Source: an archaeon (GTDB lineage: Archaea > Asgardarchaeota > Thorarchaeia > Thorarchaeales > Thorarchaeaceae). Taken from it: a DNA stretch of 29,679 nucleotides. The DNA is taken from assembly GCA_024276825.1 (NCBI GenBank), contig JAJRWI010000039.1:1-29679 (forward strand), read 5' to 3'. Shown here in pieces: positions 15,224-29,558 of this stretch; the first letter of the stretch is position 1; each line of letters starts with the position of its first letter. The position numbers and the translations under genes were made by a program. The notes beneath the pieces were generated by a model that was given only the letters and a program-made list of their open reading frames with translations, was not told the origin of the DNA and did no database searches.

Positions 15224-16786
15224 ATGCCAAAACAACCAGAAGATGAGAACATTCCAAGATATCAGAGAGGTGTTGAATGGTTTCAATACATTGTTGACAA
15301 GCAAATGGCAAATCGGCCCTGGCAGCGTCTTGGAATAATCTCATTTTATGATGCCCCGTTTGTTGCTAGTGAGAAGCTATACCTATCACCAAAACAAGTA
15401 ATGGTTGTGATGGCAAGACAGGCGAAGACAAAAGACACAGGACTTGTATTTGTAGCAGATGCGCTTGAAAAGGCTGAGATGGGACTAAGCACAAAGAAGG
15501 GCTTTGATCAATTCATGCATGTGTTCGACTCACTTTTTCCAGATGCGGAGAAATTCTATTTTGGACCAAAGGACTCAGATAGAACATTTTTGCATGAGTA
15601 TCCAACACTAAAGATCCCTCTCCAGTGGTTGATTAAGCGGCCCAATAAGTTTGCAGAGGTGCTGTCAGATGCTTCGCCTGTTGGGGAAGATATTGGTCCC
15701 GGTGATGCAGCATTTGAGGACCTCGCAGGAATGAAAGAAGTACTTGTTGAAAAGCTTGGACCTCCATCTTTAACTGAGGAAGTGCTTGGAAAGATCAAGA
15801 GCACTGAGGCCAGCGAGTATGCTGGGGAGGCAGTTGGCCTAATGACCGTCTTTATCAGTCCAGCATCTGCTGTCACCAGAGGTGTGAGGTATCTTGGTAA
15901 GTTTGCTTCTCTTATAAAAGAACGCCGTAAACAGGAGGTCAAGGAAGTATATCAAGAATGGGAGGAGAGAGTTAACAAGGCATATTCTGAGGAGAATCTC
16001 TTAAAATTCTTTGACACAGATCCAAATAGTGATTATGTTCTCAGTAGAGCAGTTTCCGAGAGAAAACCTGTTCTAATCATAACTGAAACACGGGGTACAC
16101 TATATGACCTATTTCTCCCATTGGTCTTGCAGCACCTTGTTGAAGAGATTGGGTATCTATTGCCACATCTCAGACCAAGAATGAAAGGTGAAGAAAAGAA
16201 AACCAAGAGCAAGGGAACCGAAGAAAAGACTGGAGAAGCACAAGTCGACATTTCTCAACTCACTGAGGCAGACTTACCACCAGTGACGGGAACTCTTGTC
16301 AAGCAGGTCTTTGAGAGTCATGAAAGTGAGGGCGGGCAGGAAGATGCCACTGAAGAGTTTGAAGGCAAGCCAAGAGTAATTCTATGTCTTGATGCAGCCA
16401 CACACCTTTCTAAATTTAGGAGGTCATTCAGATTTGCATTGAACCTTCCAGAAAAGTATCCCAATGTTTCAGTAGCCGCTTCATTCTTCACTGACAGAGA
16501 AACGATAAGTAGCACACTTCAAGATGGCATTCTTGACTATATGAGTGAACGTGCAATAGTGTTTGATCTTCACCCCATGATGTTCGATCTTGCGACTGCA
16601 AAGATCCCCATCACAAAGAAGGCGTGGTTGCAGGGCAGGCTTCAGGAGATGGAACGGATACATACCGAAGGTGGCGTTGCATTTCTTGAGTTTTATAAGC
16701 ACGCAAGACAACAGTGGACACTTAGAATTGTTGAAGAACCTGACCGTGGTGCCATCGAAACAATACGAAGATGGTTCAAGAGATAA
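15224..16786 (+). CDS. Hypothetical protein; degenerate HerA/FtsK/VirB4-like P-loop fold
   Basis: Long ORF with eroded motifs in HerA order: VMVVMARQAKTKDT (Walker A position), FYFGPKD, VILCLDAATHL (Walker B hhhDEAH position) and EKYPNVSV (RKxG position). Confidence 0.5.
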   Translation: MPKQPEDENIPRYQRGVEWFQYIVDKQMANRPWQRLGIISFYDAPFVASEKLYLSPKQVMVVMARQAKTKDTGLVFVADALEKAEMGLSTKKGFDQFMHVFDSLFPDAEKFYFGPKDSDRTFLHEYPTLKIPLQWLIKRPNKFAEVLSDASPVGEDIGPGDAAFEDLAGMKEVLVEKLGPPSLTEEVLGKIKSTEASEYAGEAVGLMTVFISPASAVTRGVRYLGKFASLIKERRKQEVKEVYQEWEERVNKAYSEENLLKFFDTDPNSDYVLSRAVSERKPVLIITETRGTLYDLFLPLVLQHLVEEIGYLLPHLRPRMKGEEKKTKSKGTEEKTGEAQVDISQLTEADLPPVTGTLVKQVFESHESEGGQEDATEEFEGKPRVILCLDAATHLSKFRRSFRFALNLPEKYPNVSVAASFFTDRETISSTLQDGILDYMSERAIVFDLHPMMFDLATAKIPITKKAWLQGRLQEMERIHTEGGVAFLEFYKHARQQWTLRIVEEPDRGAIETIRRWFKR

Positions 16787-19130: not shown

Positions 19131-20381
19131 ATGGGACTTCAAGTTGTTCTTTTCATTTCACCAATATCACATAGCAGAATAAAAGAGGAGATAATGGAAA
19201 GAGCCAAGGTTCTCAATCTATGTGTGGTCTCGCCAGAAGAGTTCAGGAAGAATGCGTTTCTTGAGCAAACATTGGAAAGCAAGATAGTACCGATATTTGT
19301 TGGTACTGGAGGGACGGAGAATCTAATTATTGATTTTATTCGATATAATGATATTCATGAGAGAGTTCTTTTAATAACTATCGAGGACAACAACTCTCTG
19401 CCCGCTGCACTTGAGACTCGTTCATATCTTGAAAGGCACGGATATGATGTCAATATTATTCACCTTTCAGAAAACGCACTGAATTCATTGCAAGATGAGA
19501 GTATCAAAACTGTTTTACAAAAGATTGCAAAAGCCCGAATCGGTGTCGTGGGGAATCCCTCATCATGGCTTGTGGCTTTGGAAGTGGACTATCAAGCAAT
19601 AGCCAAAATGTGGGGGCTGGAGTTGGTCAATTACGATATTAGCAGTCTTATGGCCCGAATGGCTGCAAGGCCATCTGAGGAGTTTACACCAAACTATGAG
19701 AGATTTCTATCTCAAGCAAGGACTGTTAATGTTTCTTCAGACTCTGTTTCTCAGGCAGTATCGTTTACCGAGGTTCTGGACAGGTTTGTGAGAAGCGAGT
19801 GCTTGGATGCTGTGACTATGGAGTGCTTTAGGCTCTTGATGGAAACAGGCGTTTCAGGTTGCCATGCTCTTTCATATATCAACTCAACTGGTCTTACTGC
19901 GGGTTGTGAGGGAGACATCCCTTCAACATTCACAATGCTCTTAGCAAGAATGATCACGGGTCAGGATTCATTCATGGCAAATGTTGTATCTCTAGATATT
20001 GATCAAAACACGGTCGTTTTTGCACATTGCACCGTTCCGACTTCAATTGTTAAAGAGTATGATATCATGACTCACTTTGAAACTGGACAGAGTGTAGCTA
20101 TTCGTGGGCGTTTCAGCAATGAAGATGTCACTGTGTTCAAAGTCTTTGGGCGTGATCTCTCAAAATGGTGGGTGGCAGAAGGCAAGATTATTGACAACCT
20201 GTCAAATGAGAGAGCTTGCAGGACTCAGATCAAAGTATTGCTAGAAGAGTCTGTTGAATATTTCCTTTCGAGATCACTGGCAAATCATCACGTTATAATT
20301 CCGGGAAGGCACAAGAAGGATATCATTAGAGTGATGAGTGTCAACAAGATTGCCAGATCTCTCAATCTATTCAAAAGATAG
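19131..20381 (+). CDS. L-fucose/L-arabinose isomerase-like protein
   Basis: GTGGTE, NSLPAALE, AGCEGD, FAHCTVP, THFETG, CRTQ and NHHVI match the uncharacterised FucI-C-like family. Substrate unknown. Confidence 0.72.
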   Translation: MGLQVVLFISPISHSRIKEEIMERAKVLNLCVVSPEEFRKNAFLEQTLESKIVPIFVGTGGTENLIIDFIRYNDIHERVLLITIEDNNSLPAALETRSYLERHGYDVNIIHLSENALNSLQDESIKTVLQKIAKARIGVVGNPSSWLVALEVDYQAIAKMWGLELVNYDISSLMARMAARPSEEFTPNYERFLSQARTVNVSSDSVSQAVSFTEVLDRFVRSECLDAVTMECFRLLMETGVSGCHALSYINSTGLTAGCEGDIPSTFTMLLARMITGQDSFMANVVSLDIDQNTVVFAHCTVPTSIVKEYDIMTHFETGQSVAIRGRFSNEDVTVFKVFGRDLSKWWVAEGKIIDNLSNERACRTQIKVLLEESVEYFLSRSLANHHVIIPGRHKKDIIRVMSVNKIARSLNLFKR

Positions 20382-20485: not shown

Positions 20486-22102
20486 ATGGAGCCAGATGAA
20501 CAGGGTTCTGGACCCAAGTCTAGTTTTGATAGAGAGATGTACATGGAGATCTTGCGTGATGAACCACCACTCAGAAGATATGTATCGAGAGGCGACACTC
20601 CCGATCAGGTTGATATTCCAGGTCCTCATCTTGTTGCTGACAGAGCAATCTTCAGAGCTGTGAGGTTCACTATGCAAGATGGAACACCACGACTACAGCC
20701 TGTACTTGGCAGTGCGGGGATGGGCAAGACTCACCTTTACTGGGTAATTAAGGAGCATGAAGAGATTTTTTCCAAAGGAAAATTCACTGCAATTTACGTG
20801 CCATCACCACCAGCTCCAGTAAGAATCCCACTGCATTTTCATGCCTGCATAGTTGATGAGATGGGTGAAGAACTGTTTGAGCAGACGGTGGACTATCTAA
20901 TCACAAGATTTGGTGGATTAAAGGGTGTCACCCATGAGATATATGATTATACTTATGCTTTGGAGCGTCTGTTAGTGGACTACCCAGGCATCTCGTCAGA
21001 TGTGGTCAAGGTTCTTCTCAGATATCGCCTTGATCCGCCAACAAGAGAGCTTGCAAGACGTTGGCTTCTGGGAGATGCACTTAGCGATGATGAAACCGCC
21101 AAGTTAGAGGTGAGGACTGTCCTTGAGGATGATGATGTTGTTCTTGCAACATTGAAGTTGCTTGCTGAGGGGTCAGAGCGTCCAATGGTTCTCTTTATCG
21201 ATGAAATGGAGGGTCCCTATAATAGTCATGGAGAGGAAGGAGAGAGATACTTTCTGGAGGTTCTCAAGAGGATATACAATGAGTGCAAAAATATTGTGAT
21301 CATTGCCTCTTGCTTGACAGAAATCTGGGACAGAATATACGAGATTGCAGATGCACCCATGAAATCACGAATGGAGCCTCCAGTTGCACTCAGACATTTT
21401 ACAAAAGAAGACATTGCATCATTCGTCAAGGAAACTATGATCAGATATTGGAAATCACAGAATATTGAGGCACCGCCAGACCCTCTATTTCCATTTACAG
21501 AGTCGGACATAGAGGACGCATTCAATCATTCTCAAGGAGTGCCAAGAGAAGCCATTCGTTTCTTGATTCCTCGTTTGGATAACATTCTATTCGAAACTCC
21601 AGTCAAAGAGGTTGAAGCTCAGGCAGATTATGTGATCAAGCTCACACCAACAGTAGTTCTGGGTGCTGTTGTGTCTGCTCTAACAATAATGGCGGGAACG
21701 ATGAGTATGGAGGCAAATCTACTGATGGCATCTGGAGGGACTCAAAAGCAGAGCGCAGCAATTATTGTGCTTAACAAGGCTGATTCCTCTTTCAACATTG
21801 GAATTGATGTTCCAAATGTCAAGGACTGGAATAGAAGTGGGGGTGTTGCCGCATATTATTCTGCAAAACGCCTTAAGAAAGCAATAGAGTCAGGTGAAGT
21901 AGCATTCTCAGTGATAGCAGTCCCAGAGAATACTAAAGGAACGAAATTTGAAGTAATAAGAAAAGACATGAAGGACAAATTGGCAGTCCTTCAATTGAAT
22001 GAGAAGACAGCCACAACACTTGTTGAAGCAACAAACAGTGGTACTGTTCCAGATGAACTGAGGGAGTTCTTCAAGGAACTCTTGATACTAGCATCAAGCT
22101 GA
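20486..22102 (+). CDS. AAA+ family P-loop ATPase with an extra C-terminal domain
   Basis: Walker A GSAGMGKT, Walker B VLFIDEME, putative Arg finger KSRM, lid motif GVPRE and ARRWLLG (a WLxG helix as in BrxD-like ATPases). Confidence 0.75.
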   Translation: MEPDEQGSGPKSSFDREMYMEILRDEPPLRRYVSRGDTPDQVDIPGPHLVADRAIFRAVRFTMQDGTPRLQPVLGSAGMGKTHLYWVIKEHEEIFSKGKFTAIYVPSPPAPVRIPLHFHACIVDEMGEELFEQTVDYLITRFGGLKGVTHEIYDYTYALERLLVDYPGISSDVVKVLLRYRLDPPTRELARRWLLGDALSDDETAKLEVRTVLEDDDVVLATLKLLAEGSERPMVLFIDEMEGPYNSHGEEGERYFLEVLKRIYNECKNIVIIASCLTEIWDRIYEIADAPMKSRMEPPVALRHFTKEDIASFVKETMIRYWKSQNIEAPPDPLFPFTESDIEDAFNHSQGVPREAIRFLIPRLDNILFETPVKEVEAQADYVIKLTPTVVLGAVVSALTIMAGTMSMEANLLMASGGTQKQSAAIIVLNKADSSFNIGIDVPNVKDWNRSGGVAAYYSAKRLKKAIESGEVAFSVIAVPENTKGTKFEVIRKDMKDKLAVLQLNEKTATTLVEATNSGTVPDELREFFKELLILASS

Positions 22103-22114
22103 GTGTGACAAATG

Positions 22115-23209
22115 TCAGACTGGTGAGAATTCCTTCTCTTCAATAACAACAGGCATCAGAGGTTTCATTTCTGCATCATTAAAGCAGGCCTCTATTCTAC
22201 TAATCCTAATTCGCTTGGCAGAAAAAGGCTCAGTTGGCTCCAGCCATAGATCAATCATCTGAGAGTCCTGACCAGGAGCAACGATGCTATCAAATGACCA
22301 GAGCATGCCAGCAAGCAAATTGGTTTCAGTTTCGGGAATTTCTATGGTTATCTTCAGATTTGTTGCAGGTCCTTTGCCCGCATTGTGAGCCCAGATCTTG
22401 ACATGAAAGCGGCAGTTCTCTCGTTCGATTTCGTCAGCATTCATCATTACTTTGATGTCAGGGGGCATTGTTCTCACGGTCAAAGGGACCGAAATGCTGT
22501 GAGTTATTGCTCGTTCATCGCTATGTCGAACTAGGTATTCTATTGTGATAGAGTGCTTGCCGGGATCCTTCGGCGTCAGAAAGGTCTCAACTGACACAGT
22601 ACTGTTCGAGTCCACATTCAAAATAGGCTCTATCCTTTCGCAATAGCATGCACTTGCTCGAATCCGGGGTTCTATGCTTCTTACTGGTTTGTTCAGTCTA
22701 TTGTGGAACTCAAGTCTGAAAGGTGTCCTGACCAGTGTGGGGGTTATTTCAGGGGAAACCACATGAAGTGTTACTTCAGGCGTTTTCGACCTTGCAGTTA
22801 CACGCAGCTTGTTGGACCGAATTGTCTGAATTTTATCATCATCGAAACGAGCATCTAATTCAAGAGGTCCAATGACATAATCTCCTGGGCTTTTCACCCT
22901 CAGCATGTAAAGCATTTTCAAACGTTGTGCGGCAATTAGACCACTAGGGGGCTCATCTGGAATCACCCGCTCAATCTCAATATTCTTGGGAATCAGAAGT
23001 CTCATGTCAACAATCTCAAAACTCTCGTAAGGAATGATCAGAGCCCGAATGAACAAAGGACTATCACTGAGTTCAATTGTGCCGATTTCAGGTAGGATAA
23101 TATTACAAACGGGAGGCCCTTTACATGAAACTACATGCTGTTGGTAAGCAGTTGAAGAGAATAGCCTACCACATTTTCTACATCGGATTACATGCTGTGA
23201 GTTAGGCAT
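22115..23209 (-). CDS. Hypothetical protein: C2HC zinc finger plus about three Ig-like beta-sandwich domains
   Basis: CRKC-X11-H-X3-C, then beta-rich repeats (PGDYVIGPLEL, PGKHSITIEY, NAGKGPATNLKITI) like BatD/CARDB Ig folds. No signal peptide. ATG 23209 has an AGGTG SD. Confidence 0.55.
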   Translation of the reverse strand: MPNSQHVIRCRKCGRLFSSTAYQQHVVSCKGPPVCNIILPEIGTIELSDSPLFIRALIIPYESFEIVDMRLLIPKNIEIERVIPDEPPSGLIAAQRLKMLYMLRVKSPGDYVIGPLELDARFDDDKIQTIRSNKLRVTARSKTPEVTLHVVSPEITPTLVRTPFRLEFHNRLNKPVRSIEPRIRASACYCERIEPILNVDSNSTVSVETFLTPKDPGKHSITIEYLVRHSDERAITHSISVPLTVRTMPPDIKVMMNADEIERENCRFHVKIWAHNAGKGPATNLKITIEIPETETNLLAGMLWSFDSIVAPGQDSQMIDLWLEPTEPFSAKRIRISRIEACFNDAEMKPLMPVVIEEKEFSPV

Positions 23210-23351
23210 TCTTTGCACCTATGAGGCAGATTGTAAACTATCTTTTACTTAAGTTATTACTGTATTCAGCAGCAAGCCTGCAGAAAAATGTAAATGTGTA
23301 GAAAGTTCACCTGAAACTTGCTGTTATAGCCTATGAGAGGTGAAGCCGAAG

Positions 23352-23522
23352 ATGACAGTTACAATTAAGATGCTCAGGGACAAAGAAACGAAGAATTATG
23401 TAAAGTTTAAGATTGAAGAGAATGAACACATTGAGGATTTCCAGAAAGGCATCTATATCAAGAAGGGTAGTGAGCTAGCAAGTGCGAGATCAATTATTCT
23501 CACATTGGAGATTGAAGAATGA
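23352..23522 (+). CDS. Small beta-rich hypothetical protein
   Basis: Strong GAGGTG SD before ATG 23352. Sequence pattern KETKNYVKF...GIYIKK...IILTLE. Confidence 0.6.
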   Translation: MTVTIKMLRDKETKNYVKFKIEENEHIEDFQKGIYIKKGSELASARSIILTLEIEE

Positions 23523-23622
23523 TGACTTGTTTTTGAATGCTCGTCTGCTTATTTTTTACGAGTTTAAGTACCAGAATGGCGCATATGTTGTTGAACCAAC
23601 TCAAGGGAGGGCCGAAAGAATT

Positions 23623-23898
23623 ATGCAAGTTGAAGTCGTTCGAGAGTGTTTTCCTGCATCGGTCATTGAACATGATTTGAGGATACGTCTTGCAGCCTTT
23701 CCATTTGATGCGCACTCGTGGTATTTGCTTGGTTGCCATCTGATGAAGGAACATCGATTAGAAGACGCCCGTACTGCGCTTGAGACCGCGGTTGATTTGC
23801 GGCCAAGCATAACAGTGTTCAGGATGAGACTTGCTCTGCTCTATGAGATACTTAGCTTGAATAAGCGGGCCAAGCAGCAACATGAGAAGTGCAATTGA
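23623..23898 (+). CDS. Small tetratricopeptide-repeat protein
   Basis: PFDAHSWYLLGCHLMKEHRLEDARTALETAVDLRP is a canonical TPR, followed by a second partial repeat. The ORF is open from 23482; ATG 23623 has GGGAGG upstream. Confidence 0.65.
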   Translation: MQVEVVRECFPASVIEHDLRIRLAAFPFDAHSWYLLGCHLMKEHRLEDARTALETAVDLRPSITVFRMRLALLYEILSLNKRAKQQHEKCN

Positions 23899-24597
23899 TT
23901 AAAACTTGAGGATATCATCTAGTAATGTTTCACTAAGAGAACTTGCATCAATACCGCCGTTTTCATGAAGTAGTTCAACTGAGTGGAATGTGTACTTTAC
24001 TTTTCTCTTCTTAATAAAACCAAGAGTTTCTGGAATGACTCCTGACACATTTAGGCCCAAAGCATGGTCATTGAAGCCAGTCTTTCTTGCATTGGGGGCA
24101 ATGAAAATGATCTTCTTGACCTTCTTAAAGAACTTCCACCAAGGCTTAAACCATTTAATCAGCGGCAGAGCAATTGTCTTTAATGAAGACTCAAAGGCCT
24201 TTTGATTGAATCCAGGCAAATCGCTTTCAGGTGCGCCTAGAAGTTTTAGCTGTTTAGGAATTTCTGACACTCGCAAAAAAATCACTGCACGATCAGATTT
24301 GGCAATGCATCTACCGACATCATTGGATTGAGTGAGAAAGTGATTGTGGGTATAAACCGATTCTATCAAGCGGATTTTTTTCTTTTTATAGTGGACGGTT
24401 GCAAAGTAATCTCTTGACAGGTTCCTGATTGCCTGGGGTTTCTCTGCCAGCGCTGCATCAATAATATGACCATAGAGTGGATGCAGTGGATCGATCTGCC
24501 CCAGATCACTTTTCTCAAGAGCTATTGTCATTGCTGCGATAAAGAGTGATCGTGTGCTACCATCCTGTCCTACAAACACCAGTTCCTTTGGCATCAA
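23899..24597 (-). CDS. Inactive (pseudo-)GTPase, paralogue of the two adjacent GTPases
   Basis: Colinear with the 25598 protein (VFVGQDGSTRSLFIAA vs ALIGNPGVGKTTFLIAA; PLYGHIIDAALAEKP vs PEYGTLVDLLISGKP; matching C-terminus), but lacks GKT, DxxG and TK. Confidence 0.68.
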   Translation of the reverse strand: MMPKELVFVGQDGSTRSLFIAAMTIALEKSDLGQIDPLHPLYGHIIDAALAEKPQAIRNLSRDYFATVHYKKKKIRLIESVYTHNHFLTQSNDVGRCIAKSDRAVIFLRVSEIPKQLKLLGAPESDLPGFNQKAFESSLKTIALPLIKWFKPWWKFFKKVKKIIFIAPNARKTGFNDHALGLNVSGVIPETLGFIKKRKVKYTFHSVELLHENGGIDASSLSETLLDDILKF

Positions 24598-24627
24598 TAT
24601 TCTACTCCAACAATGCGAAATTCAAGA

Positions 24628-25578
24628 CTAGTCATCTTTCAGATTCTTCAGCTTCTCAATTCTCTCAAAAGCATCTACGAGTGCGCGTGTGTAGTCATTT
24701 ATGTCCTCAATCTTCTTCTTCCCATGCAATCGAAGTAATTGGTGAATAGTCACTACATGATCATGTTTGTTTAACCCAATCCATGGTTCATCTAATAGTT
24801 CATTGAATATGGTTTCAACAGAATCTAACACTTTATTCTTGGTGAGCAATTCCTCCTTTCGTAGATTAATGAGTGCAGCCTTCTGTTTCTTCAATTGATT
24901 CTTGTCATCCTTGTCAAGCTCCAGCCCATCATGTGGAACTGGAAAGCCGCGGATTCTTGTCCATACCTCGGATGGATCAAAGCTATCAACAGAGGATACA
25001 AAGGTGAGTTTGTCCTTCAAACGTGGGCCAATAACCATGTAGGTCACTTTTAGAAAGTCCAGAAACTCCTGTATATTTCCCTTCTCATAGAAAATGTATG
25101 TCACTGGACTTTTTATGACGGCAGACACGCCTTCTAGGATAAAGTCACGATCATACTTGTTTATTCTCTTCACCCATGATTTCCAAATAGTATCATCAGC
25201 AAGCATCATGAAGGAAGCATTGACAATTGATTCCAGTGCAATCTGGTTGATGTTAGACCCAGCCTTCACCATGTTGCTAAGTGCTTCCAATGAGCTGATG
25301 GGGTTTGCAAGAAAGCCTAGTTCATCACTAAGGATAACATGAGATAATGTGTTTTCTCTTCCTTCATGATCCCTCTCGCCGCGAACAGTTATTGCTATTG
25401 CAAAATGATCCTCGTCGGCCCAGAATCCAGAGAAGACTTTGAGCAGGGGGTCACGAAACCAGCCAGATGGCAAGTCCTTGGGTGTCGACTTCATAGCGAT
25501 AATACTTCTGAGCTCATCACTCACTTCGCCCAAGACCGCAGGGTTCTGCTGGAATGGAACATAGAGGTATGCTTTCAT
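24628..25578 (-). CDS. GTPase-associated protein (GAP1-N2/GAP1-M-like, possibly DENN-like architecture)
   Basis: N-terminal beta-rich domain with RDHEGRENTLSHVIL, resembling the D-x-x-G-R...H motif of GAP1-N2. Middle alpha/beta domain ends in PRLKDKLTFVS. It sits between GTPase genes with 19- and 30-nt gaps. Confidence 0.55.
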   Translation of the reverse strand: MKAYLYVPFQQNPAVLGEVSDELRSIIAMKSTPKDLPSGWFRDPLLKVFSGFWADEDHFAIAITVRGERDHEGRENTLSHVILSDELGFLANPISSLEALSNMVKAGSNINQIALESIVNASFMMLADDTIWKSWVKRINKYDRDFILEGVSAVIKSPVTYIFYEKGNIQEFLDFLKVTYMVIGPRLKDKLTFVSSVDSFDPSEVWTRIRGFPVPHDGLELDKDDKNQLKKQKAALINLRKEELLTKNKVLDSVETIFNELLDEPWIGLNKHDHVVTIHQLLRLHGKKKIEDINDYTRALVDAFERIEKLKNLKDD

Positions 25579-25597
25579 AGATTTATCATCTCCATCA

Positions 25598-26311
25598 TTA
25601 TTTCTTCACCTTGCAGACAACAGATAATGCATCGAAAAAGATGGGCTCAAACCCCTCTGGGTCAAGCTTTCCATCTTTTCCTCTACTGTCTATCTCAAAC
25701 ATGTTAATCATAACACCCCTCTCTTTGGCCATATTCAGAAGAGGTGTTAGCTGTTCTTCAAAGAGAGTGATCATGTCGTCAAAATAATGACTATGAAGAT
25801 TACTTTTTGTGAACACAAAACCAAAATATTTGATATCACGTTCATTTCGGAGGATGTATCTGATTGCCCTGTCAATAGGTTCTATCTGTCCAGCAAGAGA
25901 GTGTGCGAAATTTTCACTCAATGATGGATCTAGAAGAAATAGGGCTGCAAATGCGTCTTTCACTGCTTCCTGAAAGTTATAGGTTGCTGCGCGATAGTCC
26001 TGTCCAGACATGTCAATGATCTTGAAAGTAATCTTTCCAAAGACCCCAGTCTTCAACTCAACTCCTTTATAGGAAACATTGCTAAACTCCAATGCATATT
26101 CAGCAATTCTAAGAGTTGGAGAGAGGGGTTTTCCAGAGATCAAGAGATCAACAAGGGTGCCATATTCTGGGGGGAGCTCCTTGAACTTTATTCGTGCCCA
26201 CCCTATTTTGTCAAGATAGTGAATAGCAGCAATGAGGAATGTAGTCTTGCCTACTCCAGGGTTTCCAATGAGGGCAATCCCCTTGCCAGAAGCTGTTAGA
26301 CTAGAGATCAT
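25598..26311 (-). CDS. TRAFAC-clade GTPase (paralogue A)
   Basis: G1 GNPGVGKT, G2 SPT, G3 DMSG, G4-like TKSN and G5-like DSRG. Confidence 0.8.
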   Translation of the reverse strand: MISSLTASGKGIALIGNPGVGKTTFLIAAIHYLDKIGWARIKFKELPPEYGTLVDLLISGKPLSPTLRIAEYALEFSNVSYKGVELKTGVFGKITFKIIDMSGQDYRAATYNFQEAVKDAFAALFLLDPSLSENFAHSLAGQIEPIDRAIRYILRNERDIKYFGFVFTKSNLHSHYFDDMITLFEEQLTPLLNMAKERGVMINMFEIDSRGKDGKLDPEGFEPIFFDALSVVCKVKK

Positions 26312-26428
26312 TTATTGCACCATGCGCTGTTGTCTGACTGTTTCCCCTTCTAATCAGTCGCTGCTTATTGGAATCTGATTCCATAAACTCGATTCTCACC
26401 CAAGCAAATAAAGGTTACTTGAACAATT

Positions 26429-26487
26429 CAATAATGGCGATATTCATGAGTTTGAATGAAATCAAGCTGCAATAATCTCGATATTAT
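26429..26487. promoter_or_regulatory. Repeated, semi-palindromic motif in the divergent GTPase promoter region
   Basis: CAATAATGGCGATATT (26429-26444) and CAATAATCTCGATATT (26470-26485) are 14/16 identical. ATAATCTCGATATTAT (26472-26487) is a 14/16 palindrome. Confidence 0.5.
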
Positions 26488-26551
26488 CTATATGGAGAAA
26501 TCTTAAATTCATGAAAAAGAAACTGAGCCTGAACATGGGGTGCATTAGAAC

Positions 26552-27520
26552 TTGGGCAAGACAATCTCATTCATTGGAAATCCAGGCACAGGAAAGACCA
26601 CTTTTCTGGTGGCATCTATACATAGGTTATCGGAGATTGGTTGGATTAAGATCAATTTGAAAAAGCTTCCAAAGGATTATGGCCTGTGGGTGGATGCACT
26701 CATCTCTGGTGAAGCAATACCTCCTACTGTTAAAGACTATGAGTACCCCTTGGAGTTTAACAGAACAGTAACCTACAAGGGATCTACAATCAAACTTGGT
26801 AGGTTCTTTGGAGTAACTATGAAGGTTAGAGACCTTCGTGGTGAAGACTATCGGCGAACAACAAAGGCATTCAAAGATTCTGTGAGCGGCGCTTCTGCAG
26901 TGCTTGTGACAATTGATGCCTCAAGATCAATAGATTTGGGCGAGGCACTCGGTGGACAGATTCAGCCTCTAATTGATGGAATTAGGTATATGGTTGAGAC
27001 CCAGAGCTCGTTAAAATACATTGGCCTAATCTTCACCAAGCGTTCATTCCATAATCATACAATATCAGACATAAGGGAGTGGGTCCACATTCCGCTGGGC
27101 CCGATAATTCGTTATCTTAAAGAGGAAGAAATTGAGTTCAGAGTTTTGGAAGTGGACAGCAGAGGGGCAGAGAACAAATTCAATCCATGGGGAATAGAGG
27201 CAGTGTACTATGATGTACTCTCCACATTAGGCAAAGTCACTGGTACAAAGATCGATGTGACGATGGACCCAGATAACATCTGGATTGACACCAGTATTAC
27301 GCCCCCAATTGACGCGAAACCACAGACCCCAGAACCACAGACCGAAGAGCAAGCTCCTGTCTACAAGCTGGGGTATAGGGTGAAGCAAAAGAAGTCACCA
27401 AAACCAAAGCCAAAAGAGGGTGGACAGGTTGGGGTAATGTATCTGGTCATCTGTCCATCATGTGGATACAAGAACCCTCAAGGACTCACTAAATGCAAGA
27501 ATTGTGGTGGGCCTCTATAA
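26552..27520 (+). CDS. TRAFAC-clade GTPase (paralogue B) with Pro/Lys-rich linker and C-terminal zinc ribbon
   Basis: G1 GNPGTGKT, G2 PPT, G3 DLRG, G4-like TKRS and DSRG. Tail PPIDAKPQTPEPQT...KQKKSPKPKPK...CPSC-X10-CKNC. TTG start with a GGGGTG SD. Confidence 0.8.
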   Translation: MGKTISFIGNPGTGKTTFLVASIHRLSEIGWIKINLKKLPKDYGLWVDALISGEAIPPTVKDYEYPLEFNRTVTYKGSTIKLGRFFGVTMKVRDLRGEDYRRTTKAFKDSVSGASAVLVTIDASRSIDLGEALGGQIQPLIDGIRYMVETQSSLKYIGLIFTKRSFHNHTISDIREWVHIPLGPIIRYLKEEEIEFRVLEVDSRGAENKFNPWGIEAVYYDVLSTLGKVTGTKIDVTMDPDNIWIDTSITPPIDAKPQTPEPQTEEQAPVYKLGYRVKQKKSPKPKPKEGGQVGVMYLVICPSCGYKNPQGLTKCKNCGGPL

Positions 27521-27584
27521 TTGCCTGTCAATGGCAGAAAAGAGCTTCTTTTATTATCAACATGTGAAATCCAGGTTTGATAAT

Positions 27585-29558
27585 ATGGCCGAATTCAATC
27601 TGGTATCGCCCTTTGAGCCGACAGGAGATCAGCCGCAGGCAATAGAGAAACTTGTTGAAGGCCTAAGGAGCGGTCTCAATCATCAGACATTGTTGGGTGT
27701 CACAGGTTCAGGAAAGACCTTCACAATGGCCAATGTGATAGCCAGATATGGTCGTCCAACACTCGTGATCTCTCATAACAAGACACTTGCAGCACAACTG
27801 ACCTCCGAATACAGTCAGTTCTTTCCTGATAATGCAGTCCATTACTATGTTTCCCATTTTGACTATTATCAGCCTGAGGCATATCTACCAAGCAAGGACA
27901 TGTATATCGAGAAGGAGGTTGACATCAATGCAGAAATTGAGCGCCTTCGACAAGCAGCAACACATGCCCTGATGACCCGTGAGGATGTAATCATTGTTGC
28001 ATCAGTCTCATGCATCTATGGGATTGGCGATCCCGAGGAGTACGATGCGCTCACATTGATTCTGCATGTGGGCCAAAGGATAGAACGTAGGGAACTCTTA
28101 GAGAAATTGGTCGCAATGCAATATGATAGGAATGACATGGAGATCAAGCCTGGCATCTTTCGCGTCCGTGGTGATGTTATTGACATCCATCCAGCATACT
28201 CAATGAACTCGGTCAGAGTTGAACTTGATGGAGAGGTGGTAGACAGAATATCAACACTGCAGCCCTTGACAAACAGACGCCTTTTCGATGAGCAATGGAT
28301 TACTATCAGTCCTGCAAGACATCATGTTGCCAGGCATGAAAAGATCCTCAGGGCACTGGAAACCATTGAACAGGAACTTAGGGAAAGGATCGAATGGTTC
28401 AGGAGGCAGGGAAAGCTTGTTGAGGCTGATCGTTTGAAACGTAGGACACTATATGATCTGGAGATGCTCCGTGAAACTGGCTATTGCAAGGGAATAGAAA
28501 ATTATTCACGCCATATTGATGGTCGGGCGCCGGGTCAGCCGCCATTCACTCTAATGGACTTCTTTCCAGATGACTTTCTCATGATTATTGATGAGAGTCA
28601 CATGACAATCCCACAGATTCGCGGAATGTACCATGGGGACCGTGCGAGAAAGGAGAACTTGGTGGAGTACGGATTTAGACTACCTTCGGCTTTTGACAAT
28701 CGGCCATTGACATTTGATGAGTTTCAGAATTATATGCGTCATGTGATATATACAAGTGCCACACCTGGACCATGGGAGAAGAGTGTGAGCAAGCAGATTG
28801 TTGAACAGCTCATCAGGCCCACGGGACTGGTTGATCCAGAGATAGTCATACGACCCGTTAATAACCAGGTAGATGATCTTCTGGTGGAGATTCAGAAAAC
28901 CGTGAAGAGTGGGGACAGAGTGCTTGTGACTACGCTTACAAAGAAAATGGCTGAGATGCTTGCTGAGTTCTTGGTTGATTCGGGGCTGAGGGCACGCTAT
29001 CTACATTCAGACATCGGAACAGTTGAGAGAATTGAGATAATAAGAGAATTGAGACTTGGAAAGTTTGATGTCCTTGTGGGTATTAACCTGTTGAGAGAAG
29101 GGCTTGACATTCCAGAAGTGGCCCTAGTGGCTATTTTGGATGCTGATAAAGAGGGCTTCCTACGTTCCGAGTGGTCATTGATTCAGACCATGGGTCGTGC
29201 TGCTAGAAATGTCAGAGGTCGAGTGATTCTGTATGCAGACCATATCTCTCAAGCCATGGAAGCCGCAATAAACGAAGTCAACAGGCGACGACGTTATCAG
29301 TTGAGTTACAACGAGGAGCATGGAATAACTCCTCGATCCATTGAGAAGACGATTCAGGATATTGCCCAGAGCATGCATCGAGAAGTAGAGCAGGCAAAAC
29401 TGGATGATTTTGGTCTTGAGGACTGGACTGACATTGCTGAGCGAATTGTTGAACTTGAGGCCTTAATGAAAGAGGCTGCGAATAATCTTGAGTTTGAGAG
29501 GGCTGCTGCTTTACGTGATGAGATAGTTGAGTTAAGGAGTAGATTGCCAGATGAGTAG
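27585..29558 (+). CDS. uvrB: Excinuclease ABC subunit B
   Basis: PTGDQPQAI, GVTGSGKT, HNKTLAAQL, DYYQPEAY, DESH, GFRLPSA.DNRPL, GINLLREGLD, QTMGRAARN and a C-terminal UVR domain (LEFERAAALRD). Start moved to ATG 27585 because the 27462 extension overlaps the upstream gene. Confidence 0.96.
   Translation: MAEFNLVSPFEPTGDQPQAIEKLVEGLRSGLNHQTLLGVTGSGKTFTMANVIARYGRPTLVISHNKTLAAQLTSEYSQFFPDNAVHYYVSHFDYYQPEAYLPSKDMYIEKEVDINAEIERLRQAATHALMTREDVIIVASVSCIYGIGDPEEYDALTLILHVGQRIERRELLEKLVAMQYDRNDMEIKPGIFRVRGDVIDIHPAYSMNSVRVELDGEVVDRISTLQPLTNRRLFDEQWITISPARHHVARHEKILRALETIEQELRERIEWFRRQGKLVEADRLKRRTLYDLEMLRETGYCKGIENYSRHIDGRAPGQPPFTLMDFFPDDFLMIIDESHMTIPQIRGMYHGDRARKENLVEYGFRLPSAFDNRPLTFDEFQNYMRHVIYTSATPGPWEKSVSKQIVEQLIRPTGLVDPEIVIRPVNNQVDDLLVEIQKTVKSGDRVLVTTLTKKMAEMLAEFLVDSGLRARYLHSDIGTVERIEIIRELRLGKFDVLVGINLLREGLDIPEVALVAILDADKEGFLRSEWSLIQTMGRAARNVRGRVILYADHISQAMEAAINEVNRRRRYQLSYNEEHGITPRSIEKTIQDIAQSMHREVEQAKLDDFGLEDWTDIAERIVELEALMKEAANNLEFERAAALRDEIVELRSRLPDE

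Follow-up and report, generated by a model that had tools for sequence, protein, structure and literature searches.

What are four linked genes doing together in an Asgard archaeon, when two of them encode predicted active small GTPases, one a degenerate paralog of these, and one a protein reminiscent, in its predicted fold, of eukaryotic GTPase regulators? The locus that raises this question lies in Thorarchaeaceae contig JAJRWI010000039.1 (assembly GCA_024276825.1), of which positions 1 to 29,679 were analyzed; "the window" denotes this entire stretch. On its minus strand the genes for GTPase A, a GAP1-like partner and the pseudo-GTPase C follow one another in that order, while GTPase B is encoded head-to-head with A on the plus strand. 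We consider it somewhat probable (about 0.6) that this cluster is an Asgard (Thorarchaeota-lineage) version of the DO-GTPase/GAP1-type switch, minimal and lacking effectors. What this analysis established, and what that reading rests on, is homology, fold assignment, conservation of gene order and co-occurrence; from these we infer physical binding, GTPase-activating (GAP) versus guanine nucleotide exchange (GEF) activity, paralog pairing and membrane association.

The comparison system is that of Kaur, Burroughs, Iyer and Aravind (2020, eLife), who described "GTPase-centric" conflict systems in which a three-domain GAP1 protein is encoded downstream of a DO-GTPase, along with a GASH or FNIII component and variable effectors (PMC7159879; PF19975, PF19993, PF20012, PF20013, PF20014, PF20052). 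These systems occur in "a few archaea", their role in conflict is a computational prediction, and the description mentions neither longin nor DENN (PMC7159879). Asgard archaea encode many small GTPases and many longin/roadblock proteins, seldom together in operons (Tran et al. 2024, PMC10933270), so that genome layout leaves GTPase clients and regulators unmatched. The cluster considered here, by contrast, is a matched set—two predicted active GTPases, one pseudo-GTPase and one regulator of predicted longin-DENN fold—small enough for reconstitution in vitro, and it joins the bacterial DO-GTPase/GAP1 "conflict" literature with that on the eukaryotic DENN, FLCN and C9orf72 regulators.

Two GTPases, a degenerate paralog and a GAP1-like partner

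GTPase A (25598-26311, minus strand; 237 amino acids, aa), the partner (24628-25578, minus strand; 316 aa), paralog C (23899-24597, minus strand; 232 aa) and GTPase B (26552-27520, plus strand; 322 aa) are all intact open reading frames (ORFs). The minus-strand run, with gaps of 19 nt between A and the partner and 30 nt between the partner and C, has exactly the coordinates and the head-to-head relation to B that the initial annotation gave. Between A and B lies a 240-nt spacer (26312-26551, assigned to no strand), AT-rich as read from the sequence, which presumably holds the promoters of both directions.

A and B are the close paralogs they had been taken for (43% identity over 228 residues, E 5e-69), and all eight motifs listed as common to them are present in the translations. 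In A, G1 reads GNPGVGKT, G2 is P65-T66, G3 is D100-x-x-G103 and G5 is E206-x-D-S-R-G211. The G domain of B (26552-27256; residues 1 to ~235) carries the same motif set, with GNPGTGKT at G1, DLRGED at G3 and TKRS-F-H at G4, and GxxGxGKT, P-T and DxxG are invariant in the A/B alignment. Two further traits mark the family: an additional beta-hairpin between beta2 and beta3, and an insert between alpha1 and G2. The latter had been announced as a long helical insert between G1 and G2; it does exist, but spans only ~25 residues and comprises a short strand and one helix (residues 36-60 in the model of A).

The most unusual motif is G4, which in this family reads T-K-x-x-x-H, its aspartate gone: A has T168-K169 followed by no Asp (TKSN-L-H173), and the aspartate position (A residue 171) is Asn in the window's A, Leu in other A orthologs and Ser in B. 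Since distant DO-GTPase relatives retain TKxD, the guanine-specifying aspartate was lost secondarily. In classical GTPases, an Asp-to-Asn change at G4 shifts specificity to xanthine nucleotides. Here, because the G4 residue is not conserved in A and B, relaxed base specificity is likelier than a xanthine switch, and with the guanine-specifying aspartate missing the base specificity of both proteins may be relaxed in this manner. The Walker B of A and B is an invariant hhhhD100-x-x-G, and a glutamate (hhhE79) stands there in C alone; the accessible portion of PMC7159879 words a conserved Walker B glutamate for DO-GTPases, with its position unspecified.

The AlphaFold2 (AF2) model of A has a small-GTPase fold (predicted local distance difference test, pLDDT, 84.8; predicted template modeling score, pTM, 0.87). 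Compared with known structures (VIA), it matches Arl2 (Z 17.0; root-mean-square deviation, rmsd, 2.5; 162 aligned), SR-beta (16.8), a Lokiarchaeal RagA-like protein (16.8) and RagD (16.6), with Rab and Ras ~1-2 Z units below the top matches and overall Z values of 15-17 to Arl2, SR-beta, Rag and Arf. Sequence models are less forthcoming. Neither PF19975 nor PF19993 reaches its gathering cut-off of 27 bits (A, 15.5 and 12.2; B, 18.3 and 21.7), the P-loop alone being matched, and across the window's own genome PF19993 yields DO-GTPase2 matches at the level of the P-loop only. When the four proteins were scanned against Pfam, NCBIfam and PADLOC, only sub-threshold P-loop and zinc-ribbon matches came back, and a sequence search of the PDB with the A/B and partner profiles gave nothing significant.

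Intermediates bridge this distance. An A/B profile search of 1.8 billion representatives retrieved 34 proteins; of the 27 distant relatives aligned, 17 match Pfam DO-GTPase2 (best E 1.6e-11) and six DO-GTPase1, and no other GTPase family recurs among them. One relative, P0026, passes the DO-GTPase2 cut-off at 28.9 bits, and the language-model neighbors of A are DO-GTPase2 clusters at 0.95. Via these intermediates, A and B probably belong with the DO ("double") GTPases, the closest described family. In another of the distant relatives, P0029 (455 aa), a DO-GTPase2-like G domain is fused to an EAP30/Vps36-type (ESCRT-II-like) domain at the C-terminus (E 1.4e-5; 25.4 bits, with the cut-off at 26.8); through this fusion the GTPase family may be connected with ESCRT-like winged-helix modules.

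The comparison with Rag/Gtr heterodimers fares poorly, even though these too consist of paralogous GTPases, as A, B and C possibly do in pairs, served by longin-containing regulators, and A reaches fold Z 16-17 against them. A, B and C are G domains devoid of the C-terminal roadblock dimerization domain of Rag/Gtr proteins, which makes the analogy drawn earlier weak and rules out a Rag-like reading; Pfam Gtr1_RagA scores 13.1 bits, below its cut-off of 22.

Beyond its G domain, B continues into a low-complexity, proline- and charge-rich linker (27257-27445; residues ~236-298) and a zinc ribbon of the form CxxC...CxxC (27446-27520, stop codon included; residues 299-322), for which Pfam gives the sub-threshold matches Zn_ribbon_RanBP (20.7 bits), Zn_Ribbon_1 and DZR. 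The motif is kept in 5/5 B orthologs, whereas the linker differs in length and sequence.

The third minus-strand gene was proposed to encode a pseudo-GTPase, and C is indeed a full-length paralog of A and B (hhalign 97.7%, E 1.5e-12, 210 columns), its pairwise similarity to A being weak. In the window, its Walker A is degenerate (GQDGSTRS), its Walker B is reduced to hhhE (E79), and the G3 glycine, G4 and G5 are lost. A motif table of seven C orthologs shows all of them to lack the DxxG glycine, G4 and G5, with hhhE replacing hhhD. The dead P-loop, in contrast, is confined to the window's own sub-lineage (the window, P0016, L001 and G321); it is intact (GxxxxGKT) in L004, L006, G387, G389 and G362. 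C also carries a variable insert of its own and, at residues 146-165, a conserved cationic, Trp/Phe-rich amphipathic helix (hydrophobic moment 0.69, net charge +7). K148, K151 and W154 are invariant in C, and a helix of this composition may bind membrane. In a tree of A, B, C and the GTPases of the Asgard family f26, introduced below, C and the f26 proteins sit on very long branches; its usable result is that the single active-type GTPase of genome G362 groups with clade B (support 93/88).

The partner is predicted to comprise a longin domain (residues 1-126), an alpha/beta DENN-like domain (~131-265) and a helical tail; its AF2 model reached pLDDT 77.9 and pTM 0.82, only the best of five models being good. 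Foldseek against the PDB retrieved DENND10, C9orf72, FLCN and DENND1B at E 2e-5 to 6e-4, and the whole-protein, two-domain matches were DENND1A (Z 8.5, 223 aligned), DENND1B, DENND10 and TagF. Taken separately (VIA), residues 1-126 match the longin domain of Lst4 (Z 9.0, rmsd 3.6, 114 aligned), a Loki Roadblock-Longin protein (7.7) and NPRL2 (6.2-6.4), and residues 131-294 the DENN domains of FLCN (Z 8.3) and C9orf72 (Z 8.4). For comparison with d-DENN, the tail offers helices at 271-284 and 295-311, with pLDDT below 50 from residue 288.

Searches with other features place the partner nearer still to GAP1 proteins. In the ESM Atlas fold search, GAP1-N2/M/C clusters rank first (TM score 0.59-0.65, 250-278 residues aligned), among them a cluster annotated GAP1-N2 at 79%, GAP1-M at 78% and GAP1-C at 26% (TM score 0.65 over 278 residues); the eukaryotic Avl9, SPA, DENND11 and DENN clusters come next (0.48-0.53). 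The language-model search gave GAP1-N2/N1/M clusters at 0.89-0.95, the best among the matches listed. The partner thus appears closest to GAP1-N2/M proteins and has a predicted longin-DENN fold like that of FLCN, C9orf72 and DENND1. At the level of Pfam models no family is assigned at E up to 1, whether DENN, uDENN, Folliculin, C9orf72-like, Avl9 or GAP1-N1/-N2/-M/-C, and PF20013 (GAP1-N2) finds nothing in the window's own genome at E up to 10. Nevertheless, the choice of DO-GTPase, GAP1 and DENN as comparators was well made: A and B come nearest to DO-GTPases, the partner to GAP1-N2/M, and a longin-DENN fold is predicted.

Nearly all invariant residues of the partner lie on the longin face, with G67, D70, G73, R74, N76 and H80 in or about a hairpin loop. 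The motif D-x-x-G-R-(5-6)-H formed there is common to the partner and the GAP1-N2 proteins of Asgard family f26, as the earlier mention of a GAP1-N2-like motif implied. In longin GAPs of the FLCN, NPRL2 and SMCR8 class, beta2 is preceded by a GP motif and the longin domain supplies an arginine finger for catalysis (PMC12290439). In the partner, the loop before beta2 reads [NSKT]-P-A-V-L-G rather than G-P, and R74 is invariant in the hairpin loop.

Conserved order and patchy distribution

Homologs are very rare: among 5.8 billion proteins, A has 7 clusters, the partner 3 and C 2, all from Asgard metagenome-assembled genomes. The same set of genes, in unchanged order, nonetheless turns up in loci L001-L006 and genomes G321, G362 and G387-G389, amid unrelated flanks. 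A, partner and C follow one another wherever all three are on the contig (L001/L002, L004, L006, G362, G387 and G389; the contigs of L003 and L005 end before C), and B is divergent from A (seen in L001, L003, L004, L006, G387 and G389) in all loci except that of G362. In L003, L004 and G387 the reading frames of A and the partner overlap by 4 nt. The four-gene arrangement is far beyond chance.

A survey of 400 genomes of the phylum found strong matches to the partner profile in six, all of one family and including the window's own genome; a seventh genome, G289, of another family, has one marginal match (E 5.6e-4) on an unrelated contig. Strong matches to the A/B profile fall in the identical six genomes. 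The genes thus co-occur, linked, in six genomes of a single family. Because the same six genomes hold both profiles and a near-closed genome of the same genus (G320) holds neither, the module is tightly co-inherited yet patchy and accessory-like; it is present in 5/85 other genomes of the family. The G320 counterparts of the module's flanks are scattered over the chromosome, so no boundary of insertion or deletion can be drawn against that genome.

Although identities among partner orthologs fall as low as 24-36%, no locus of sufficient length has an interrupted copy of any of the four ORFs. The most divergent version, in G362 (L038; G362:C15, 6882-9312), has a partner 24% identical to that of the window and consists of one B-like GTPase that lacks the zinc ribbon, the partner, and C, whose P-loop is intact (GWPGSGKT); no second GTPase adjoins. 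This form may show the ancestral state of two GTPases flanking a GAP1 protein.

A second Asgard family, f26 (G288, G289 and G291; L030, L035 and L028), offers a related triplet in which a GTPase of ~230 aa, homologous to A and B (hhalign 97.5%, E 5e-12), is encoded directly upstream of a 327-341-aa protein, with a co-oriented third gene thereafter. The middle gene passes the Pfam cut-off for GAP1-N2 in 2/3 genomes and is just below it in the third. Unlike A and B, the f26 GTPase keeps a canonical TKND; the third gene, conserved at ~279 aa and matching no Pfam family, is not a GTPase paralog, and no divergent second GTPase was seen in the stretch retrieved.

A putative regulatory switch and its competitors

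How might such a set of proteins work? A and B would be active small TRAFAC nucleoside triphosphatases of Arf/SR-beta/Rag-like fold, possibly with relaxed base specificity, and the gene downstream of A would supply their GAP1-like regulator, in which a DENN-like alpha/beta domain comes after a longin domain. The four products may form one self-contained complex, as the initial annotation proposed. This regulator would dock on a GTPase via its longin face—the hairpin loop D70-x-x-G73-R74, with H80—and, once docked, would control nucleotide hydrolysis or exchange. C would pair with an active GTPase as a non-catalytic scaffold, and its cationic aromatic helix may anchor the complex at a membrane. 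The zinc ribbon tethered to B is a candidate input or output handle.

The likeness to DO-GTPase/GAP1 systems lies in the parts and their layout: paralogous TRAFAC GTPases in one neighborhood, one of them with a zinc ribbon; a GAP1-type multi-domain protein immediately downstream of a GTPase, as the partner is 19 nt after A; and distant relatives that are DO-GTPase2/1 for A and B, and nearest clusters that are GAP1-N2/M/C for the partner. The differences are equally plain. The module has three paralogs, one of them degenerate, and no Pfam model at cut-off; its zinc ribbon is C-terminal, on a proline-rich tether, whereas that of 60% of described DO-GTPase members is N-terminal (PMC7159879). It has no GASH, FNIII, effector or transmembrane protein, and it sits in an Asgard host in a housekeeping context. 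The initial annotation did not recognize the arrangement as described, and this seems to stand for the third degenerate paralog and the effector-less form; it falls for the rest, DO-GTPase/GAP1 systems and an Asgard Roadblock/Rab-like GTPase/DENN operon being already in print. What is already known is thus the DO-GTPase/GAP1 system and the Asgard DENN-GTPase operon; what appears new here is a third degenerate paralog, a C-terminal zinc ribbon, the absence of the G4 aspartate, and the absence of effector, FNIII and GASH components.

Several results weigh against the favored assignment. No curated hidden Markov model (DO-GTPase1/2, GAP1-N1/N2/M/C, DENN or Folliculin) scores any of the four proteins at or above its cut-off, and the DENN-domain Z of 8.3 is barely above that of PilB/VirB11-type alpha/beta domains (7.5). 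Profile comparison of the partner with the Pfam-passing Asgard GAP1-N2 proteins, though collinear over 188 columns, is not significant (hhalign E 0.13, probability 0.5%), and for this reason the link to GAP1 rests on language-model features, predicted structure, gene context and one hhalign match at 55%, the latter between the partner profile and the 289-aa protein encoded downstream of P0026 (E 1.2e-4, 231 columns). Finally, the patchy distribution is no less what one would expect of accessory or conflict genes than of core cell biology, and so points away from a cell-biological output.

This last point bears on the strongest competitor, in which the same parts form an anti-virus or conflict system like bacterial DO-GTPase/GAP1, the GTPase pair serving as the threshold switch, with an invader sensed by either the zinc ribbon or the partner. 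The effector would then have its gene at another locus, unless the complex did that work on its own, for instance through membrane perturbation by C's cationic helix. The nearest described family is, after all, a predicted conflict system (PMC7159879); the distribution is patchy at the level of the genus, with the module missing from a same-genus genome and its flanks varying between lineages; and one distant relative, L008, lies near a RAMP gene. What makes this version unlikely, if deserving of serious attention, is that across the loci compared no variable effector, FNIII, GASH, EAD or transmembrane component is conserved beside the core, that PADLOC matched none of the four proteins and ten neighbors, that the context in the window is housekeeping, and that DO-GTPase systems themselves owe their conflict role to computational prediction. 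Given the lack of a conserved adjoining effector gene and the housekeeping neighbors, we lean toward a switch that regulates cellular processes, and away from a device for abortive infection.

The favored switch may also have a deeper history. The partner shares with eukaryotic longin-DENN proteins (DENND1A/B-Rab35, FLCN-FNIP with RagC/D, C9orf72-SMCR8 with Arf/Rab, DENND10 and Avl9) a predicted domain order of longin, alpha/beta DENN and helical tail, and all of these proteins are encoded with, or act with, a small GTPase of Arf/Rag/Rab-like fold. It differs from them in showing no detectable sequence similarity, no Pfam DENN, uDENN or Folliculin match, and no GP motif as such; it is one protein, not a heterodimer of longin-DENN proteins, and A, B and C carry neither the roadblock domains of Rags nor lipid anchors. 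A passing mention in the accessible part of a 2026 paper has DENN folds present in Archaea and Bacteria (PMC13392464). It is conceivable, albeit speculative and on balance rather doubtful, that bacterial GAP1 and eukaryotic DENN proteins are one ancient longin-DENN family that co-evolved with paired GTPases, and that the Asgard cluster is a cell-biological, non-immune descendant, a heterodimer (A-B, or an active GTPase with C) under a single longin-DENN protein. Were this so, the cluster would be a prokaryotic counterpart of Rag/FLCN or Arf/C9orf72-SMCR8 logic, and the first genomically matched, reconstitutable Asgard GTPase-regulator set. If GAP1 is a DENN module, the origin of DENN would shift from a eukaryotic or Asgard invention to a widespread prokaryotic GTPase-regulator pair, and the effector-less Asgard form embedded among housekeeping genes would serve as a useful test of cell biology against immunity.

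A third possibility draws the cluster toward eukaryotes by another route. As far as the available text of their preprint goes, Liu et al. (2020) predicted an operon of Roadblock (LAMTOR1-like), Rab-like GTPase and DENN in most Asgard archaea, along with further DENN paralog families, and held the operon's GTPase not to be a Rag (bioRxiv 10.1101/2020.10.19.343400). Our cluster could be a lineage-specific form of that operon, kin to the eukaryotic FLCN/DENN-Rag/Rab axis and not to bacterial GAP1; the partner might conceivably belong to one of the further DENN families. In both, on that portion of the preprint, a small GTPase other than a Rag is coupled to a protein of DENN fold; the solved structures matching the partner are eukaryotic DENN proteins and longin GAP subunits; one A ortholog bears the NCBI name "Rab family GTPase"; and A has fold Z values of 15-17 to Rag, Arl and Rab. 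We nonetheless regard this as improbable. The cluster has no Roadblock gene and two extra GTPase paralogs, one of which occupies the third position of the run; the partner family occurs in 7/400 genomes, against an operon "conserved in most Asgard archaea" in the preprint's accessible wording; GAP1 clusters stand above those of eukaryotic DENN proteins whether ranked on shape or on language-model features; and the sequence relatives of the GTPases are DO-GTPases rather than Ras, Rab or Arf.

That the genes are adjacent by descent only, or decaying, with no joint action is very hard to credit: the lost catalytic motifs of C would suit it, but the four ORFs stay intact while the partner diverges to 24-36% identity, A, partner and C are overlapping or tightly spaced, co-occurrence is perfect across six genomes, and C retains invariant residues of its own.

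Surrounding genes and distant loci

The neighbors of the cluster in the window are genes of the tricarboxylic acid cycle and 2-oxoacid oxidoreductase (POR), a thermosome, thioredoxin reductases, a prenyltransferase and UvrB, a housekeeping company that rules out reading the window as a defense island. Across loci, the flanks include UvrB, PALP, a methyltransferase, a TPR protein and orphans.

Just downstream of C lie the gene for a 367-aa orphan with no Pfam or PADLOC match (22115-23218, minus strand) and that for a small TPR protein (23482-23898, plus strand). Since they stand beside the module only in its closest relative, L001, both are probably outside it. On the other side, the mechanically called UvrB ORF (27462-29558, plus strand) begins with a GTG at 27462, its first 59 nt coinciding with the end of B; the L001 ortholog is 657 aa long, so that the true start is probably ~40 codons downstream. 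Two UvrA-like genes follow UvrB in L001. Further away, three large proteins encoded on the plus strand (20486-22102, 19131-20381 and 15224-16786) have weak or no family assignment and no PADLOC match; the first has a sub-threshold AAA_16 match only, and the last had been flagged in an earlier note as an eroded HerA-like ATPase.

Among the distant GTPase relatives, genes adjoining those of L007 and L009 gave no convincing hhalign match to the partner or C profiles; a 318-aa protein in L009 reached E 0.034 over 262 columns. L026 (4816-7943) holds, in sequence, the Pfam-passing DO-GTPase2 P0026, an overlapping gene for the 289-aa GAP1-like protein and a Ser/Thr protein kinase, with a 670-aa orphan ahead of them, an arrangement reminiscent of the link to kinases described for GAP1-N2 systems of actinobacteria.

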